From positions 1-61,068 of the IMG/VR virus record IMGVR_UViG_3300019487_000034: a stretch of 61,068 nt of DNA; one strand, written 5' to 3'. This stretch comes from a virus (Duplodnaviria; Caudoviricetes). The notes beneath the pieces are model-generated. The model saw nothing but the letters and a program-made list of their open reading frames with translations, ran no database searches and was not told the origin of the DNA. Positions 1 to 61,068 of this stretch are shown here, one piece after another; positions within the stretch are counted from its first letter, which is position 1, and every line of letters starts with the position of its first letter. The translations under genes were made by a program, and so were the position numbers.

Positions 1-90
1 CCCCGTTGGGGTTACCCCGAACGCCCCCCCCCCCCCCAAGCGGGGTCTGCGGGACCCCCCGGGGCCCCCGCCCCCCCCCCCCCCCGCCCG
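1..90. other. Low-complexity poly(C)-rich contig end
   Basis: Long C runs mixed with irregular GC-only sequence; mirrors the C-rich right end. Confidence 0.8.
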
Positions 91-191
91 GTTTATTCTG
101 CAGCTCGTTGGTCCAGCTATACTGGACCCACAGGCGATAACGTAAACCGTACTAAACTTGTTATAACTGGTGTCACCTATTCTGTGTACAA

Positions 192-209
192 GTGTCTCCT
201 CGAAGACAC
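192..209 (+). promoter_or_regulatory. Putative upstream activator site for a sigma54 enhancer-binding protein
   Basis: Inverted repeat GTGTCT-N6-AGACAC containing TGT-N10-ACA (193-208), about 70 bp upstream of the -24 box. Confidence 0.45.
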
Positions 210-275
210 AACTCGAGGGATCATAATCATTAATAGCTAGCTGCATTGCGTAGAAATCATTCGTGATTTCGAAGC

Positions 276-291
276 TGGCACGGTGTCTGCA
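276..291 (+). promoter_or_regulatory. Sigma54 (-24/-12) promoter
   Basis: TGGCACG-GTGT-CTGCA matches consensus TGGCACG-N4-TTGCW with exact GG/GC spacing, at the start of the early arm. Confidence 0.7.
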
Positions 292-301
292 ATAGCTATT
301 C

Positions 302-552
302 TCGTTCGGCGAGGCAAACTGAGTGCAAGCCTCACGGGATACCAGGATACGGCCAGGGGCGCCGCAGGGACTAAGCCCAAGCCTATAAGATCCGGAGACC
401 GACGACCGAACTAACTGAAGCTGGGATCATGGGAATGTTCGCTTGCAGTCAAAGGATGCTGGTGCTCGGGACTACCGCCTGACAAGCGGCCGACGCTGGT
501 GCTGACTAGTTGCAATACAATGTAACGGCGATCTTCCGACCCATGATCCAAA
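302..552 (+). ncRNA. Structured non-coding RNA / long leader of unknown family
   Basis: No credible ORF; long-range helices GTTCGG 304-309/CCGAAC 405-410 and GGATCATGGG 424-433/CCCATGATCC 540-549, with nested hairpins. Confidence 0.6.
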
Positions 553-601
553 CCCGTATCTGCAATTGCAGACTGACGAGCCGGAGTAACGGCGAAACGG
601 G
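553..601 (+). ncRNA. Hammerhead ribozyme, type III (predicted cleavage after A558)
   Basis: CCCG-UA / stem I UCUGC-AAUU-GCAGA / CUGACGA / stem II GCCG-GAGUAA-CGGC / GAAA / CGGG: full catalytic core and all three stems intact. Confidence 0.93.
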
Positions 602-608
602 GAATAAC

Positions 609-794
609 ATGAATATTGAGCAATACGTGGATGCGATTGGGCAATTCGTTGACCTATCGACACTGGACATGTCATCCGATGAGATCGACAATTATGCGGT
701 CGAAATGCTGGAAGCCGGATATTCCGCCGAGGAAGCGGCTGCAGGCTTATGCCTGGAAAATATTCCGGATCAATTTCATTTGCAGGGGGAATAA
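609..794 (+). CDS. Small acidic hypothetical protein (first early gene)
   Basis: ATG at 609 after GGGGA RBS; very D/E-rich. Confidence 0.7.
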   Translation: MNIEQYVDAIGQFVDLSTLDMSSDEIDNYAVEMLEAGYSAEEAAAGLCLENIPDQFHLQGE

Positions 795-795
795 T

Positions 796-951
796 ATGAT
801 TAAGTTTGGAAGTCACGTCTGGTTTATTCGGGAGCGGGCCGGACAGTACTGGTTGGTAGACGATAGTAATCCCGAACTGGCCCTGAAGTTGCAAGGTGTT
901 CACTGCCAGGCCGAGGCGGAACGCATGGCCTGGGTGTTGATAAACGGATAA
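796..951 (+). CDS. Hypothetical protein
   Basis: ATG after AGGGGGA RBS, abuts previous stop. Confidence 0.6.
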   Translation: MIKFGSHVWFIRERAGQYWLVDDSNPELALKLQGVHCQAEAERMAWVLING

Positions 952-968
952 TAAACTAGGAGCATCAA

Positions 969-1211
969 ATGCGAGTCTTCAATCAAGCGGGCGATACGGT
1001 TAACATTACGGTCGGCGGGCGTTACTCCGATGATATACAGATCAATTCGGCCGAATTCGAGATGCATCCGGAGCTGGATGTCCCGGACACCGATATTGAG
1101 TGGATTCTCGAGAATCACGCTGATGAGATCTACCAGGAATGGCTCGAGAATCGGATTGATGAGGCAGAATTGGCTTGCGAGTTGCGTCGAGATGCGGAGA
1201 TGGGACTATGA
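969..1211 (+). CDS. Acidic hypothetical protein
   Basis: AGGAG RBS, 80 aa. Confidence 0.7.
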   Translation: MRVFNQAGDTVNITVGGRYSDDIQINSAEFEMHPELDVPDTDIEWILENHADEIYQEWLENRIDEAELACELRRDAEMGL

Positions 1212-1492
1212 GTCACAAGTTAACACCGACCCGACCGGGTCCAGAATTCAGTCACAAGCTGACACTTCACCAGGTCATGAAATTGGGTCTCGAGGTGTGG
1301 GTAATACGATATAACAATCGGGACGTATACCAGTATCTATCGGAGCGTATTGCCCGGACTAGGTTCGAACGTCTCCGCATGGAATTGGAAAGGGGACTGC
1401 ATGCGTCCACGGACCCAGAACGGAGCCAACATGCGGCCCATCCGGTGGGCCCCGAAGGGAGACATCATGTATCTGCTCGCCGATCAGTCTAG
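1208..1492 (+). CDS. Hypothetical protein
   Basis: ATGA overlap with previous stop; short SHKLT duplication. Confidence 0.5.
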   Translation: MSHKLTPTRPGPEFSHKLTLHQVMKLGLEVWVIRYNNRDVYQYLSERIARTRFERLRMELERGLHASTDPERSQHAAHPVGPEGRHHVSARRSV

Positions 1493-2243
1493 TAATGCGA
1501 AACTGTCGAAGAATCTCGGTATCACGGCCAAATGGCAGACCTCGATTCTATACCTGTCCCCCGCCGATAGCAGCGATCTGACAGATAGCTCCGGCGGTCC
1601 GGTTAACCTCTGTCCGGCGGCGAGTCCCGGTTGCCGTGCGGCATGCCTCAATACGGCCGGACGTGGTGCCATGAGTAGCGTGCAGCTCGGGCGTCTCCGC
1701 AAGACGAAACTTCTGGTCCAAGACCCGATCGAATTTAACCGGCAACTATCTGCGGACCTCGAGACGCTTGTCAATCGTCAGCGTAGAACGGGAGTGAGGC
1801 AGGCAGTCCGTCTAAACGGAACGTCCGATATCGCATGGGAATTCCATTCCATTGTCCGGAACGGAACGGAGTTCGACGGAGTCCCCCAGGCATTCCCCGA
1901 ACTTCTCTTCTACGATTACACCAAGTTGCCGAATAGGATAATCGACTTCGCTACTCCCGAGGATTCCTGGTTTCCGAGTAACTACCATCTAACATTCAGT
2001 CGGTCCGAAGTTAACGACGTGATAGTCCGGCGATTGCTCAAGTATAGCACAGTCACGGTCGCAGTTGTATTCTCCGGAACACAGTTGCCTACTGAATGGA
2101 ACGGCCGGCCGGTGATCGACGGGACACAGCATGATATGAGATTCCTGGACCCGGCCGGTGTAATTGTGGGCCTGTTGGCTAAGGGCAAGGCGAAACGTGA
2201 TGACTCAGGATTTACTATCCAATTAACGGAGGGAGCGGCATGA
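1467..2243 (+). CDS. GP88-like phage protein (Cys-motif, radical-SAM-like)
   Basis: LCPAASPGCRAACLNTAGRG, VRLNGTSDI, FYDYTK, YHLTFSRSE, HDMRFLD motifs; RBS GGGAG before ATG 1467. Confidence 0.75.
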   Translation: MYLLADQSSNAKLSKNLGITAKWQTSILYLSPADSSDLTDSSGGPVNLCPAASPGCRAACLNTAGRGAMSSVQLGRLRKTKLLVQDPIEFNRQLSADLETLVNRQRRTGVRQAVRLNGTSDIAWEFHSIVRNGTEFDGVPQAFPELLFYDYTKLPNRIIDFATPEDSWFPSNYHLTFSRSEVNDVIVRRLLKYSTVTVAVVFSGTQLPTEWNGRPVIDGTQHDMRFLDPAGVIVGLLAKGKAKRDDSGFTIQLTEGAA

Positions 2244-2482
2244 GTAAGTGCCAGCGTTGCGGAGGCAAGGCCAAGTTATATTCAATCTCGGCGAAATGTT
2301 CGGACCTATACTCACATGAGCATATCGGAGGCAAGAGCTACGATGGCTACGTGCCCGATTGGATCGGCGAATACGGTGATTATGTGCGATTCACTATCTG
2401 TCGACACTGTGGCCAGGTCCAGGGGGAATGGCCTGAACTGGACAGTTCAATTAACAAGTTCAAATCAGGAAAGGCGAGTTAA
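2240..2482 (+). CDS. Zn-finger-like hypothetical protein
   Basis: CQRC...CRHC; ATGA overlap. Confidence 0.7.
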   Translation: MSKCQRCGGKAKLYSISAKCSDLYSHEHIGGKSYDGYVPDWIGEYGDYVRFTICRHCGQVQGEWPELDSSINKFKSGKAS

Positions 2483-2484
2483 CC

Positions 2485-2577
2485 ATGGACGAATACCTAC
2501 TATTCTATATTCCAGTCCTAATAGGACTAGGACTGGCAATCCTAGTACTACTAACCGTAGACGATGGGAGGGATTGA
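2485..2577 (+). CDS. Small membrane peptide (30 aa)
   Basis: MDEYLLFYIPVLIGLGLAILVLLTVDDGRD fills the gap exactly; below ORF-track cutoff. Confidence 0.55.
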   Translation: MDEYLLFYIPVLIGLGLAILVLLTVDDGRD

Positions 2578-2578
2578 T

Positions 2579-2851
2579 ATGTCTGTGATAATGTCAGTCA
2601 CGTTCGGGCATCGCCCGGTGACACAGATCGAGTTGGTATTAACACGGGACACTGAGCGGTATACCGTATCCGTGAATGATTCGGAGGGACTCCTGCACCT
2701 GACGGAATTCCCGTTCGATGACACGATTGAGTTACTGGATGCAAACGAACAGGCACTGGAATGGTTCGACACTGTGCATGAGGCTATCACACAGTACGTA
2801 GATCAATCTGGTAGCCAAGCGATTCGCAATCTGGTGAATACACTGCAGTAA
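2579..2851 (+). CDS. Hypothetical protein
   Basis: GGGAGGG RBS. Confidence 0.7.
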   Translation: MSVIMSVTFGHRPVTQIELVLTRDTERYTVSVNDSEGLLHLTEFPFDDTIELLDANEQALEWFDTVHEAITQYVDQSGSQAIRNLVNTLQ

Positions 2852-2863
2852 CGGAGGTACGCC

Positions 2864-3535
2864 ATGGCCATCTATAACGACGGACTTCCCAAGGAACATT
2901 GCCGCAAGATCATACTGGATCGAATGAGTGAACGTCTGTCATCCGCATTTACACTGCCCTCCGAGTCACTGACGTTCGAGCAGAGACTGACTGAGTTGAA
3001 CCCGAATATCCGGCTAGTTGGTGCTGAATGGGACACAGGCGTGTGGTCTAGGGCACAGGAGAAGGCCAACCGCTGGCGACTGCCAATCTCCATAATGCGG
3101 GGTGAGGATCTCAACGTACTCAAGTCAGCGGAACAGCAGCAATTCCAATTGATGTGGCTAGACTGGTGTGGATCATTGACTTCTAATCGTATTGATTACA
3201 TGAGACGCATAGCGAGGGGATTACATTCCTGTCAATACCTAGCCGTTACTATTCTGGCAGCTCGAGAGCCTGCGGGTAATCTTCCCGAAGCGTATGCCAG
3301 GGACCGAGCTTCCTGGATCACGACGCAGCTGCGGAGTGCAGCGACCCGTAGGGATCGGCACTGTCACCCATTGCACATAGTGCGTTATCATTCTCATGTC
3401 GGAGACTATGTCTCATCACCAATGTTATTCATGCTATTCCAATTTCATGAATCGAAGTATCCGGTCCTCGATATTTCTGATTTTACTCGGGTTGAACATT
3501 TAGTGTCCACAGGTAGACGTTTGGTTGCAGCGTAA
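2864..3535 (+). CDS. Putative SAM-dependent methyltransferase-fold protein
   Basis: LVGAEWD and FQLMWLDWCG resemble class I MTase strands; GGAGG RBS. Confidence 0.45.
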   Translation: MAIYNDGLPKEHCRKIILDRMSERLSSAFTLPSESLTFEQRLTELNPNIRLVGAEWDTGVWSRAQEKANRWRLPISIMRGEDLNVLKSAEQQQFQLMWLDWCGSLTSNRIDYMRRIARGLHSCQYLAVTILAAREPAGNLPEAYARDRASWITTQLRSAATRRDRHCHPLHIVRYHSHVGDYVSSPMLFMLFQFHESKYPVLDISDFTRVEHLVSTGRRLVAA

Positions 3536-3585: not shown

Positions 3586-4323
3586 GTGAGTCAGAATCTC
3601 AGCTCAGTCAGCATCAGTGAGTACGCCGATCGTGCATTGGCATCAGTCTCGGGACGCTATCGCCCAGTGGACACCGAGTCACTAGTGCAGAAGATCATTA
3701 AGGACATTGGCCTGGGTGCGACGGTCGAAGCTGTATCCGGGAGGGGCTCGAAGAGTACCAAGCATGCAGTAGTACTGACACTGCCGAACCCCGTGAGTCT
3801 TGCCGGAACCCAGTGCTACCCCCGGATCTATGTCCGGAACTCATACGATGGGGAGTCGGCACTGACCGTACGTGTCGGCTTCTATAGGCTCATCTGCACC
3901 AATGGCATGATGATTGGCACGGATCACTTCAATGGCCGCATCGTACACTTGCAGTCTGGTGTCCAGCAGTTGGCACAGTTGCGGAGTAGCATTGTCGCTG
4001 CTGTCCAGTGGTGCACGGTCGAGCTGCCCAAGCTTGCGGACAGATTGAATTCGGTGCTCCTCACACCGGTACAAATTAGCACCGTACTGGCGAGGATCGG
4101 AGCATCGAAGCGGTTAGCCGAGCGGGTCAGCACTCGAGTGCAGTTCCCGTGGGTTGCGGTTCGCACCGAGGATCGCCAGGTCGATGGTCAATTGACAGCG
4201 TGGAACGTGTGGAATATTATCAATGAGCAGCAGCGAATCCTCTCACGGTCGCAGCTCCGTCAATTGGAAGTCAATGCCCGGCTACTGGATGCAGTCGAGG
4301 CAGTAGTTCAGCAAGCCGCATAG
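3586..4323 (+). CDS. DUF932/DUF945-family protein
   Basis: NSYDGESAL...GFYRLICTNGM signature. Confidence 0.8.
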   Translation: MSQNLSSVSISEYADRALASVSGRYRPVDTESLVQKIIKDIGLGATVEAVSGRGSKSTKHAVVLTLPNPVSLAGTQCYPRIYVRNSYDGESALTVRVGFYRLICTNGMMIGTDHFNGRIVHLQSGVQQLAQLRSSIVAAVQWCTVELPKLADRLNSVLLTPVQISTVLARIGASKRLAERVSTRVQFPWVAVRTEDRQVDGQLTAWNVWNIINEQQRILSRSQLRQLEVNARLLDAVEAVVQQAA

Positions 4324-4404
4324 CCCTCTGCAATTGCTGCTGCAATCATGCCTCGGTCAACCGATCCCATGGAAGGGATCCCGCCTACAACGAGGAAGAG
4401 TAAC

Positions 4405-4578: not shown

Positions 4579-4960
4579 TCGCTTCATGGGCTCACGGGAT
4601 ATGCTGCGATCTAAGTGGGCATTGAAACATGTAGATTCCTACAAAGAGCTAGTAACAGACGTCGTCCAGATCCTCCATGATCCGGAGGAGTATGAGTCCA
4701 TTGATCCGAATAGAGTGCATCTCATCGACGATGGTGACTATCAGGGAACGCTGTTGTTTGTGATTGCTGCTGGAGGATACCAGCCGAGTACCTACTGGTA
4801 CGTGAAGGTCAGTTACGGTAGTTGCAGCGGATGTGATACACTGGAAGGAATCCGTGGGTACTATGAGCTTCCTCCCACCGAGGAACAATTAGATCAATAC
4901 CTAACCCTAGCCCTGCATGTGGTGCAGGGATTGAAAGGAATGAACAATGAGGAAGAATAA
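4559..4960 (+). CDS. Hypothetical phage protein
   Basis: GDYQG and YGSCSGCDTLE motifs. Confidence 0.7.
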   Translation: MIQQFVDRFMGSRDMLRSKWALKHVDSYKELVTDVVQILHDPEEYESIDPNRVHLIDDGDYQGTLLFVIAAGGYQPSTYWYVKVSYGSCSGCDTLEGIRGYYELPPTEEQLDQYLTLALHVVQGLKGMNNEEE

Positions 4961-5168
4961 TATTCGAGTGACACGTCCGGATCAGGCACGTGCCGAAGCG
5001 GCAGCCAAACGCCGGGCCAAGCGAAAGCAAGTGCGCACGGCCCTCCTCGCCCCGTATCGCAAGCTCCTGGTAGCTCGAGATGAGCAGATCTCCAAGCTCA
5101 TCACTGAGGTACAGGAGTTGTCGTCGGAGAATCAGAAGCTTCGACTTCCGGTGACGGAGGGCAAGTGA
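4947..5168 (+). CDS. Basic coiled-coil hypothetical protein
   Basis: Tight operon packing. Confidence 0.6.
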   Translation: MRKNNIRVTRPDQARAEAAAKRRAKRKQVRTALLAPYRKLLVARDEQISKLITEVQELSSENQKLRLPVTEGK

Positions 5169-5476
5169 GTCACACACCACCACCTCCGAAACCCCCGGTT
5201 TACAAGACGTATGCCGAACGTGCCGCAGCGGAGAAGAAGATACGGGATGAGAGTAACCGGAAGACTCATCAGGAGTACCGGCTACCTCCAGTACCGGCGC
5301 TCGGTAAGACACGACGACATGACCCGAAGGATCCGGTCCCGAGTGCGGGTGGTATTCCAACGAGGGACATGGAGCCAATCAAGCTTCCACTGCGGAAGCG
5401 TGAGGATCGGGGTAAGTTTGCGGATATCATATCCATTAATCGGAAGGAGGGAAGAGGAGATGGACAACAGGATTGA
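5165..5476 (+). CDS. Hypothetical protein
   Basis: GGAGG RBS, GTGA overlap. Confidence 0.6.
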   Translation: MSHTPPPPKPPVYKTYAERAAAEKKIRDESNRKTHQEYRLPPVPALGKTRRHDPKDPVPSAGGIPTRDMEPIKLPLRKREDRGKFADIISINRKEGRGDGQQD

Positions 5477-30880: not shown

Positions 30881-31735
30881 TTACTTCGTTCCCCCGGGTG
30901 GAGCCGAGGGAGACCCGGCGTCCTGCCAGCCCGTGTAACTCTTCTGCCCCCCGGCATCTTTATACTGTCCATACTCATCTGAGAAGGCACCTGACTTATA
31001 TGAGCCATATGCACTGACGCCGGCAGCTCCCATGGCCCCAACGGCGCCAATAGTTGCTGCCTGCTTCGCATCGGCCATCTCATTTTGCGCCATCTGGAGT
31101 GCTGCGTTGAGGTCGATGGAAGCCATGGCCTTCTGGAAGTCCCGATCCGAAGAGGCCAGGACATTCTGATTCCCGAGGCTCTTCACCAATAGATCCTTAT
31201 TAGATCCGAGGACTGCCTTCTGCAGGGCCTCCTTGAAGGCGAGATCATTATCCAGACGATTCCGCTGACCTTCGAGTTCCAACTTGTCGAGGTACTTCTG
31301 GTCACCCATGCGCATCGTGTGGGACAGTTGCTCCAACTTCGCCTTATCTTTCTCGAAGTCGAGAGTTCCACGCTGCCTTCCGAGATCTGACAGTAACTCC
31401 TGCTTCCGTATAGAGTTCTGCTGTTGCATTTGCTGGCGACGGAGATCGAGATCCGCACGAGCCGATTGCTCCTGCATCCCGAGTTGTTGCACCTTCTGCC
31501 CAACCTCGGCAGCGGCTAGTTGCCCCTGGGGTTGCAGTTGTTCCAACTGTTGCCGGGTCTGGTCCACCGCAGCCGATTCTGCAATAGCAGATTGTGGCGC
31601 AAGCTGACCGGCACCCACTGCCTTCCCGCTCTTCGCTGCCAGGAGTTGCCGGGCCCGACCAGTCTGATCGGTTGTACCGACAGCTTCGGTCCCCGTGGCT
31701 GCTAGGTTGCGTTGAATCTTATCGATGAGGGCCAT
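30881..31735 (-). CDS. Putative DNA transfer/ejection protein
   Basis: Gln/Ala-rich coiled-coil with Gly/Ala hydrophobic segment. Confidence 0.55.
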   Translation of the reverse strand: MALIDKIQRNLAATGTEAVGTTDQTGRARQLLAAKSGKAVGAGQLAPQSAIAESAAVDQTRQQLEQLQPQGQLAAAEVGQKVQQLGMQEQSARADLDLRRQQMQQQNSIRKQELLSDLGRQRGTLDFEKDKAKLEQLSHTMRMGDQKYLDKLELEGQRNRLDNDLAFKEALQKAVLGSNKDLLVKSLGNQNVLASSDRDFQKAMASIDLNAALQMAQNEMADAKQAATIGAVGAMGAAGVSAYGSYKSGAFSDEYGQYKDAGGQKSYTGWQDAGSPSAPPGGTK

Positions 31736-60945: not shown

Positions 60946-61001
60946 TGCCCAGTACGACCCATCGCACCCAATACGGGTACCAGCGTACCCACAGGGTCCC
61001 A
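60946..61001 (+). repeat. Helically phased CCCA repeats
   Basis: CCCA at 60948, 60958, 60967, 60988, 60998 and ACCA at 60979. Confidence 0.55.
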
Positions 61002-61003
61002 GT

Positions 61004-61068
61004 CCCCCCCCCCCCCCCCCCCCCCTTTCTTTCTCTCTTTTGTCCCCCCCCACTCCCACCACCCGCGA
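61004..61068. other. Poly(C) tract and low-complexity contig end
   Basis: More than 20 consecutive C followed by pyrimidine-rich sequence. Confidence 0.8.

Follow-up and report, generated by a model that had tools for sequence, protein, structure and literature searches.

The window, by which we mean the whole stretch of DNA analysed here, is an entire IMG/VR record of 61,068 bases with a completeness of 100% by CheckV. Its gene layout is that of a tailed phage, with a rightward block (0.6-24 kb) that encodes a family A DNA polymerase, a helicase and a Cas4-like nuclease, among others, and a leftward block (24-61 kb) that encodes a portal protein, a large terminase and a decoration-like protein, among others; the record begins with 100 bases and ends with 70 bases of C-rich homopolymer tracts. 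BLASTN of window positions 1-3000 against GenBank phages returned no match, and the large terminase found three GenBank phage records only, all at 25% identity or less. On these sequence comparisons, the window appears to be a novel 61-kb tailed phage that is distant from all GenBank phages. The features at the head of its rightward block are the following.

100-552, + strand: non-coding leader 5' of the ribozyme, delimited by ORF calls, codon scores and folding; cleavage would remove it.
553-557, + strand: 5' strand of stem III, CCCGU, read from the sequence, the Rfam alignment, the fold and the descriptor; it would stay on the discarded leader.
558, + strand: cleavage-site nucleotide A17 (triplet GUA), from hammerhead numbering and the RF00008 alignment; scission is predicted between 558 and 559.
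559-572, + strand: stem I hairpin, TCTGCAATTGCAGA, 5 bp with an AAUU loop, from the sequence and the fold; predicted extreme 5' end of the cut mRNA.
573-579, + strand: catalytic core strand CUGACGA (C3-A9), from the sequence and the RF00008 alignment.
580-593, + strand: stem II hairpin, GCCG/CGGC with loop GAGUAA, from the sequence, the RF00008 alignment and the fold.
594-596, + strand: catalytic core GAA (G12-A14), from the sequence and the RF00008 alignment.
597-601, + strand: 3' strand of stem III, ACGGG, from the fold; 599-601 are common to the Shine-Dalgarno sequence (SD).
599-603, + strand: SD-like G-run GGGGA, 5 nt before the ATG at 609-611.
609-794, + strand: gene 1, a 61-aa, very acidic ORFan and the first ORF of the early operon.
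796-951, + strand: gene 2, in the first early gene block.
969-1211, + strand: gene 3, in the first early gene block.
1208-1492, + strand: gene 4, with a homologue in locus L256.
1467-2243, + strand: GP88-family gene (PF17338), the nearest conserved gene, 0.9 kb downstream.

The reading frame and start of gene 1 were judged with a codon table trained on 17 long genes of the window. The 61 codons of gene 1 score 0.26 per codon, in line with in-frame windows (0.30 +/- 0.14) rather than off-frame windows (-0.49 +/- 0.18), and the in-frame extension 510-608, which includes the ribozyme, scores -0.03. Scores of -0.28 to 0.02 were obtained for antisense ORFs and likewise for the ORFs in or overlapping the leader (100-552), where there is no convincing ORF. 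Gene 2 starts after a 1-nt gap, and the 17-mer that holds its RBS and start (786-802) equals that of gene 1 at 15 of 17 positions. The earlier note had gene 1 translated from ATG 609, and both the codon score, by which the frame looks real, and the nearly identical RBS and start of gene 2 uphold this. GGAG-type SDs precede most other genes (79 GGAG-spacer-ATG matches against 61.8 expected), which indicates that the host uses SD-led initiation; the G-run GGGGA of gene 1 is a weaker SD than the GGAG type. The encoded protein contains 14 Asp/Glu and no Lys or Arg. Comparison with Pfam and PHROGs came back empty, Atlas scores (0.81 or less) were at chance level, and a search for relatives found none in IMG/VR and, among 5.8 billion proteins, only gene 1 itself.

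A promoter search of window positions 1-600 located none; since no promoter was located upstream, we infer the length of the leader transcript and even its existence. A sigma-54-like motif at 276-291 was considered and rejected as not significant (11 matches at 2 mismatches or fewer, against 7.9 expected). Short direct and inverted repeats around the ribozyme (D7, D9, I1 and I4) occur, by a rough estimate, about as often as expected for 8-10-mers in 1.3 kb.

Judged by its sequence and structural features, the element between the leader and gene 1 is a genuine type III hammerhead ribozyme, for which self-cleavage is predicted. The claim that a complete hammerhead lies here holds, as all of the invariant residues and three helices are found within 553-601. 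The core consists of C3 U4 G5 A6 N7 G8 A9 and G12 A13 A14 (573-579 and 594-596), the NUH triplet is G556 U557 A558, and the flanking pairs A15.1-U16.1 and G10.1-C11.1 are A597-U557 and G580-C593. Loops cap stem I (5 bp) and stem II (4 bp), and the 5-bp stem III is open, which is the type III topology, and 5 bp and 4 bp are in the usual range of stems I and II in natural type III hammerheads. For fast cleavage at cellular Mg2+, natural hammerheads need a tertiary contact between loop 1 and loop 2; here, stem I is short, with 5 bp and a 4-nt loop. Folding of 545-615 gives precisely the hammerhead as the structure of lowest energy (-20.3 kcal/mol, z -2.77, with 4 of 200 shuffles as stable), and this fold is retained when the 521 nt of 100-620 are folded.

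When all 4227 Rfam families were run over the whole window, RF00008 was the sole match at E<=1 (39.2 bits, E 5.6e-5), at a single hammerhead copy in the genome. Because 39.2 bits lies below the curated gathering threshold of 48.5 bits, a default Rfam scan reports nothing. The related ribozyme in L256 reaches 25.6 bits against RF00008 (E 0.34), and in two further loci, L160 and L161, Rfam found no hammerhead at E<=1 though both satisfy every element of our descriptor; such phage forms seem to escape the Rfam type III model. That descriptor requires the core, at least 4 bp in stem I, 3 bp in stem II and 4 bp in stem III, H at position 17, and a length of 90 nt or less. It matched four distinct sites in 2,240,411 bases of phage DNA (both strands), all on the coding strand, and none in five shuffles. 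A relaxed version (stems of 3, 2 and 3 bp) gave 39 matches in 1.78 Mb, and since these were mostly implausible, the strict descriptor alone was used. A search of IMG/VR for the exact 26-nt ribozyme core returned 0 matches.

To place the ribozyme among relatives, we gathered 300 GP88 loci from IMG/VR and JGI metagenomes, four of which (the window, L256, L160 and L161) hold a clean type III hammerhead, in each case upstream of GP88 and on the same strand. The window GP88 as a single query had no match in IMG/VR or genome contigs; its closest homologues, on contigs of roughly 55-63 kb, are P0013, P0019, P0022, P0027 and P0065, and locus scans with P0019 and P0065 yielded more distant loci only. 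L256, a phage fragment, is a true relative. It encodes a homologue of gene 4 (53% over 40 aa, E 5e-12) and a GP88 fragment 59% identical to P0019, itself a homologue of the window GP88, and its ribozyme lies upstream of the same gene block as in the window. BLASTN of the window against L256 at E<1 gave alignments nowhere but in the coding region of GP88 and over 29 nt of the ribozyme core (83%, E 0.012); nothing else in the leaders aligns, which leaves the core as the sole alignable non-coding DNA. Read from the two ribozymes side by side (one true relative), five stem pairs are changed on both sides and still paired (1.1-2.1, 1.3-2.3, 1.5-2.5, 10.2-11.2 and 15.2-16.2), and none of the shared stem pairs is broken; MAFFT misaligned stem I, and pair counts on descriptor-selected sequences would be circular. 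The element is not universal in the clade, given that two other GP88 relatives with flanks, L082/L002 and L222, contained no hammerhead by Rfam (E<=1) or by the descriptor.

The way in which the ribozyme meets the start codon also recurs in L256, where the 3' strand of stem III, AGGG, is followed by a fourth G, 5 nt and a GUG start. From this GUG runs a hydrophobic ORF of 26 codons, and the stop of this ORF overlaps the beginning of the gene 4 homologue. The first ORFs after the two ribozymes are unrelated (a 26-aa peptide in L256 versus the 61-aa gene 1 in the window), and, as far as the two sequences can tell, the ribozyme-on-SD geometry appears to be kept despite the different downstream ORF. 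A third case, L340, came from a G-run-after-core pattern that returned 61 IMG/VR loci, most of them type I or II hammerheads when read by eye. L340 is a type III hammerhead between two genes that begins 2 nt past a stop codon, and its stem III 3' strand, ACGGGGA, is followed by GG, 4 nt and an ATG. We take it to be an independent lineage because its record contains no GP88.

How phage hammerheads are generally positioned was asked with a second IMG/VR pattern, free of SD bias, that gave at least 131 matches in at least 120 loci. Full hammerheads among the matches listed numbered 71 (62 type I and 9 type III), and 54 of these 71 were followed within 60 nt by an SD-like word together with a start codon and an ORF of 25 codons or more, where 200 trials with random positions on the same strands under the same rule averaged 15.4 and never exceeded 25. 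Among the matches listed, the start lay a median of 24 nt from the hammerhead; in the loci L160, L161 and L323 this distance is 32, 42 and 25 nt, respectively. GP88 genes of other phages are flanked by type I or II hammerheads as well, 9 distinct ones, all on the coding strand. A leader position just upstream of a start is thus the usual and already known pattern of phage hammerheads, and only the SD overlap is unusual in the window. Since other phage hammerheads lie near starts without overlapping the SD, processing rather than masking of the RBS is the common denominator.

The explanation we favour, with a probability of roughly 0.7, is that the element is a constitutive type III hammerhead that processes, or insulates against, the 5' leader of the first early operon. 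From the observed motif, with its significance, conservation and position, we infer cleavage in vivo, the fates of the two fragments and the effects on stability and translation as follows. The RNA would fold as soon as the 3' strand of stem III has been transcribed and would self-cleave at the A558-U559 junction. The upstream leader, held by no more than 5 base pairs, would depart with a 2',3'-cyclic phosphate, and the early mRNA would then begin with a 5'-OH right at the stem I hairpin. As the ribozyme is of type III, it would stay on the 5' end of the downstream mRNA, where the order would be stem I, stem II, single-stranded ACGGGGAAUAAC and the AUG of gene 1. Early expression would gain a defined, structured 5' end that is independent of the long leader, in the way proposed for other phage hammerheads and achieved by the engineered RiboJ insulator. 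Bacterial mRNA decay involves 5'-end-dependent entry of RNase E or J, and a 5' hairpin with a 5'-OH should protect the mRNA. The 3-nt overlap with the SD would render translation of gene 1 somewhat dependent on cleavage, probably as a modest side effect of tight packing and not as a regulated switch.

That overlap was the starting point of the earlier note, which held that CGGG 598-601, in the 3' strand of stem III, shares bases with the GGGGA SD of ATG 609, and that self-cleavage would unmask the RBS as a natural ribozyme-controlled translation switch. The first of these points is borne out: the SD overlap is real and rare, and three of the five SD bases (599-601) lie in the helix, in which G599-G601 pair with C553-C555, the strand that cleavage would release. 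One could argue from this that the SD is hidden in uncut RNA, that cleavage is needed for initiation at ATG 609, and that this gating is the selected function of the overlap, a proposal that we consider unlikely. In its favour, C598-G601 are predicted to be paired in the uncut RNA, with an unpaired probability of 0.13 or less for five different 5' extents and with G602-C608 open, and the two-strand duplex of stem III, at 5 bp, is weak (-8.6 kcal/mol before a concentration term). In a thermodynamic model, the cost of opening the SD falls from 4.3 kcal/mol in uncut to 2.4 kcal/mol in cut RNA in the window, from 7.3 to 3.0 in L256 and from 6.1 to 4.0 in L340. However, just 3 of 5 SD bases are paired, in a helix of only 5 bp, and the predicted gain in the window is about 1.9 kcal/mol. 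When the SD through +12 is considered, the same model gives 5.6 kcal/mol before and 5.9 after cleavage, such that there is no gain for the whole initiation region. In addition, a 3-bp alternative pairing, CUG/CGG, is predicted to cover C598-G600 again in the cut RNA. The idea of unmasking survives, then, insofar as a 5-bp stem III should fall apart, and loses ground in that the predicted gain is small and vanishes over the SD to +12. The notion of a switch finds no support. The ribozyme carries no sensor or aptamer domain (its loops have just 4 and 6 nt, and RF00008 is the sole Rfam family found at E<=1) and no other regulatory domain; without a sensor, cleavage would be constitutive and nothing would be switched.

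Comparison with other loci cuts both ways. The same SD-overlap geometry is found in L256, ahead of an unrelated ORF, and in the unrelated L340 (by the same rule, the SD offsets are -3 in the window, -5 in L256 and -5 in L340), and it is otherwise rare, with an SD inside the ribozyme in 1 of the 54 hammerhead-start pairs among the matches listed. That one case, L482, is doubtful, with a better SD and ATG about 45 nt further on. This rarity among hammerhead-start pairs argues that the overlap is not simply the usual spacing, and its recurrence in L256 and L340 may mean that it was selected rather than being a by-product. Yet the window and L256 are related and do not count as independent cases, the overlap in L340 is partly a matter of ascertainment given that this locus was found with a pattern that requires a G-run, and in most phage hammerheads the SD lies outside the ribozyme. 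We rank constitutive processing above cleavage-gated translation, and the two are not exclusive. The stronger proposition, that a type III hammerhead was pulled onto the RBS as a natural maturation-to-translation checkpoint, in the lineage of the window and L256 and independently in L340, strikes us as doubtful. If true, the first early protein would be made only from transcripts that have been cut free of the leader, and the phage would possess a host-independent, RNA-only checkpoint at the start of infection.

That such an arrangement can work is indicated by the well-known engineered aptazymes, which, in the available text of PMC7445771, bury the SD in a ribozyme stem and control translation in E. 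coli. What they have in common with the window is an SD inside a hammerhead helix, in a bacterial 5' UTR, with a masking strand that cleavage frees (PMC7445771, as far as its available text describes them). They differ in that their scaffold is of type I, with a stem I lengthened to span the whole SD, and in that an aptamer makes them ligand-dependent (same portion of PMC7445771), whereas the window holds a natural type III ribozyme that lacks an aptamer and takes up just 3 SD bases in its 5-bp stem III. A search of full-text literature other than subscription journals and supplementary tables, which may contain some (those of Perreault et al., for example), returned no precedent for a natural SD shared with a hammerhead helix. 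If the overlap is functional, the locus would be the first natural example found, in that full-text literature, of a design hitherto built by hand in synthetic biology. If it is not functional, the locus still adds to the evidence for hammerheads placed just upstream of translation starts.

Constitutive leader processing, the reading we prefer, has several counterparts. In phage T7, RNase III cuts the polycistronic early transcript just upstream of the first early gene, which helps its translation. There, a host enzyme cuts a double-stranded hairpin, whereas the RNA of the window would cut itself, independently of the host. RiboJ is built from a type III hammerhead and a hairpin. Like the window ribozyme, it is a type III element that sits between promoter or leader and RBS and stays on the mRNA, and it removes a variable leader. 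Unlike the window, RiboJ is synthetic and has an extra hairpin that keeps the RBS clear of the ribozyme, a spacer that the window lacks; in L161, a distant case, a hairpin does lie between ribozyme and RBS. According to the available part of PMC6206723, RiboJ is an engineered hammerhead insulator, and protection of the mRNA at its 5' end is the proposed way in which it raises expression.

The closest natural parallel in position is the hammerhead of the haloviruses HF1/HF2 (HHphage), which, in the accessible sections of Perreault et al. 2011 (PMC3088659), precedes by 13 nt the first ORF of a polycistronic early transcript; the 5' end of that transcript was mapped to within 3 nt of the cleavage site. 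The likeness to the window is the placement in a leader just upstream of the first early start codon (PMC3088659, same sections). The differences are that HHphage is a structural variant needing high salt or Mg2+ whereas the window ribozyme has a canonical core, and that the distance to the start codon is 13 nt in HHphage and 7 nt in the window, where 3 nt are shared with the SD (again with respect to those sections of PMC3088659). Prophage hammerheads are also described there as flanking genes, with the proposal that they cut long transcripts into gene-length mRNAs; these, for example the triple around ardA in Agrobacterium tumefaciens, resemble the window ribozyme in being intergenic, on the coding strand and in phage operons (PMC3088659, accessible sections). 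The phage hammerheads that we sampled are mostly type I or II (62 of 71 are type I among the matches listed) and the window ribozyme is type III. Cleavage of a type I hammerhead leaves the ribozyme body with the fragment upstream, whereas in the type III of the window it would remain attached to the downstream mRNA, at its 5' end. Phage genomes contain thousands of hammerheads, and for their function the present locus offers a compact and testable example: one canonical type III ribozyme heads the first early operon of a complete genome, would stay on the mRNA and touches the RBS.

The leader itself, rather than the mRNA, could be the product of cleavage. By this explanation, which we regard as improbable, the ~450-nt leader (100-552) would be a functional ncRNA whose 3' end is trimmed by the ribozyme to ...CCCGUA with a cyclic phosphate. 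Consistent with it, the leader is long and devoid of a convincing ORF, a perfect 10-bp inverted repeat (424-433/540-549) closes a domain of 106 nt whose end lies 3 nt short of the ribozyme, and L256 likewise has ~520 nt of non-coding, GC-rich sequence 5' of its ribozyme. However, the leaders of the window and L256 share no alignable sequence, the fold of 100-620 is no more stable than those of shuffles (z -1.15, with 11 of 100 as stable), comparison of the leader with Rfam gives nothing at E<=1, and in L340, L323 and L161 the ribozyme directly follows a protein-coding gene.

Very improbable, finally, is a motif that does not work, whether a chance or decayed hammerhead or, with an incidental RNA fold, TCTGCAATTGCAGA as the DNA operator of a dimeric regulator: an Rfam score below gathering, a 14-bp perfect palindrome placed like an operator before the first early gene, a half-site copy at 286-293 and near-palindromes at 4327-4340 (intergenic) and 31578-31591 could be cited for it, but all invariant core bases are present, the match is significant over the window (E 5.6e-5) and the descriptor finds nothing in shuffles, in L256 the ribozyme is conserved, five of its pairs have changed in a compensatory way and its stem I is not palindromic, and near-copies of the palindrome are not enriched in the window (5 at 3 mismatches or fewer, where 2.25 are expected and 10 of 100 shuffles give at least 5). 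The operator idea was rejected on this lack of enrichment.

Stem I (559-572) is indeed self-complementary, as had been noticed before, and forms an exact 14-nt palindrome of 5 pairs with an AAUU loop. Because every hairpin is palindromic once its 4-nt loop is self-complementary, the palindrome is a trivial by-product with a chance of 1 in 16. The earlier note had further suggested that it could allow dimers to form, and the predicted energies are -22.0 kcal/mol for the two-strand duplex versus -5.4 kcal/mol per hairpin. We dropped the dimer idea as unsupported, since none of the other 5 type III hammerheads found has the palindrome and since an A/U loop of 4 nt makes a poor kissing site. Among public sequencing runs, one contains the locus, a DNA run that is labelled cave metagenome and is possibly the source sample.

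In other phages, hammerhead ribozymes were found near counterparts of two early genes of the window. Genes of the GP88 family (PF17338), a copy of which lies downstream of the ribozyme in the window (1467-2243), carry type II hammerheads and one type I hammerhead at their flanks in six of the metagenome phage loci collected for comparison (L009, L016, L019, L022, L061 and L077). All of the hammerheads bracketing these genes lie on the coding strand, some of them only a few bases from the gene ends. The two sites at L009 are:

3835-3888, coding strand, hammerhead at one flank of the GP88 gene
4705-4758, coding strand, hammerhead at the other flank of the same gene

A further type III hammerhead, the type present in the window, occurs at L433 (4074-4126), ~0.8 kb 5' of a gene (4949-5389) homologous to the DUF932 gene of the window (3586-4323). 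Hammerheads may recur ahead of early gene blocks of this kind.

Type II hammerheads at L307, L353 and L358, present as two sites ~470 nt apart in each of the first two, are each followed within ~25 nt or less by a Shine-Dalgarno-like word and an ATG. At L161 (3908-4030), a terminator-like hairpin with a 7-bp stem and a TTCG loop stands immediately 5' of the hammerhead, whose stem III takes its 5' strand from the T-run of that hairpin. Hammerhead and RBS are separated by a second hairpin. With a hairpin separating ribozyme from RBS, this arrangement is a natural look-alike of the layout of the engineered insulator RiboJ.

In the window, the leader upstream of the ribozyme contains a perfect 10-bp inverted repeat (424-433 with 540-549) that encloses a 106-nt domain. 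This domain ends 3 nt 5' of the ribozyme and is retained in the predicted fold of 100-620; it might allow the ribozyme to fold undisturbed by the leader. Two stretches could each offer an alternative pairing in competition with the ribozyme fold, or both may have arisen by chance: the segment 522-531, which repeats, 64 nt upstream, a 10-mer of the stem II 3' half (586-595), and a 12-nt stretch at 285-296 that is 92% complementary to the stem I stretch 562-573. The stem I palindrome has near-copies at 4327-4340 (2 mismatches), in the short gap separating two early genes, and at 31578-31591 (1 mismatch), and such near-copies are not enriched over chance in the window. A match to the sigma-54 -24/-12 promoter consensus with 1 mismatch, at 276-291 and ~260 nt 5' of the ribozyme, is not statistically significant.

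The product of gene 1 (609-794, 61 aa) has 14 Asp/Glu residues and lacks both Lys and Arg; no relatives were found among 5.8 billion proteins or in IMG/VR, Pfam, PHROGs and Atlas. Such a composition in the product of the first gene of the early operon brings to mind DNA-mimic anti-restriction proteins, although the searches gave no support for a function. The 17-mers spanning the RBS and start of gene 1 (599-615) and gene 2 (786-802) are identical at 15 of 17 positions (repeat family D5), and this near-identity suggests that the initiation region of the two genes is duplicated or under joint constraint.

Both ends of the complete record (1-100 and 61000-61068, + strand) consist of homopolymer tracts rich in C, with the longest runs reaching ~28 C, which may be either assembly artefacts or true genome termini.
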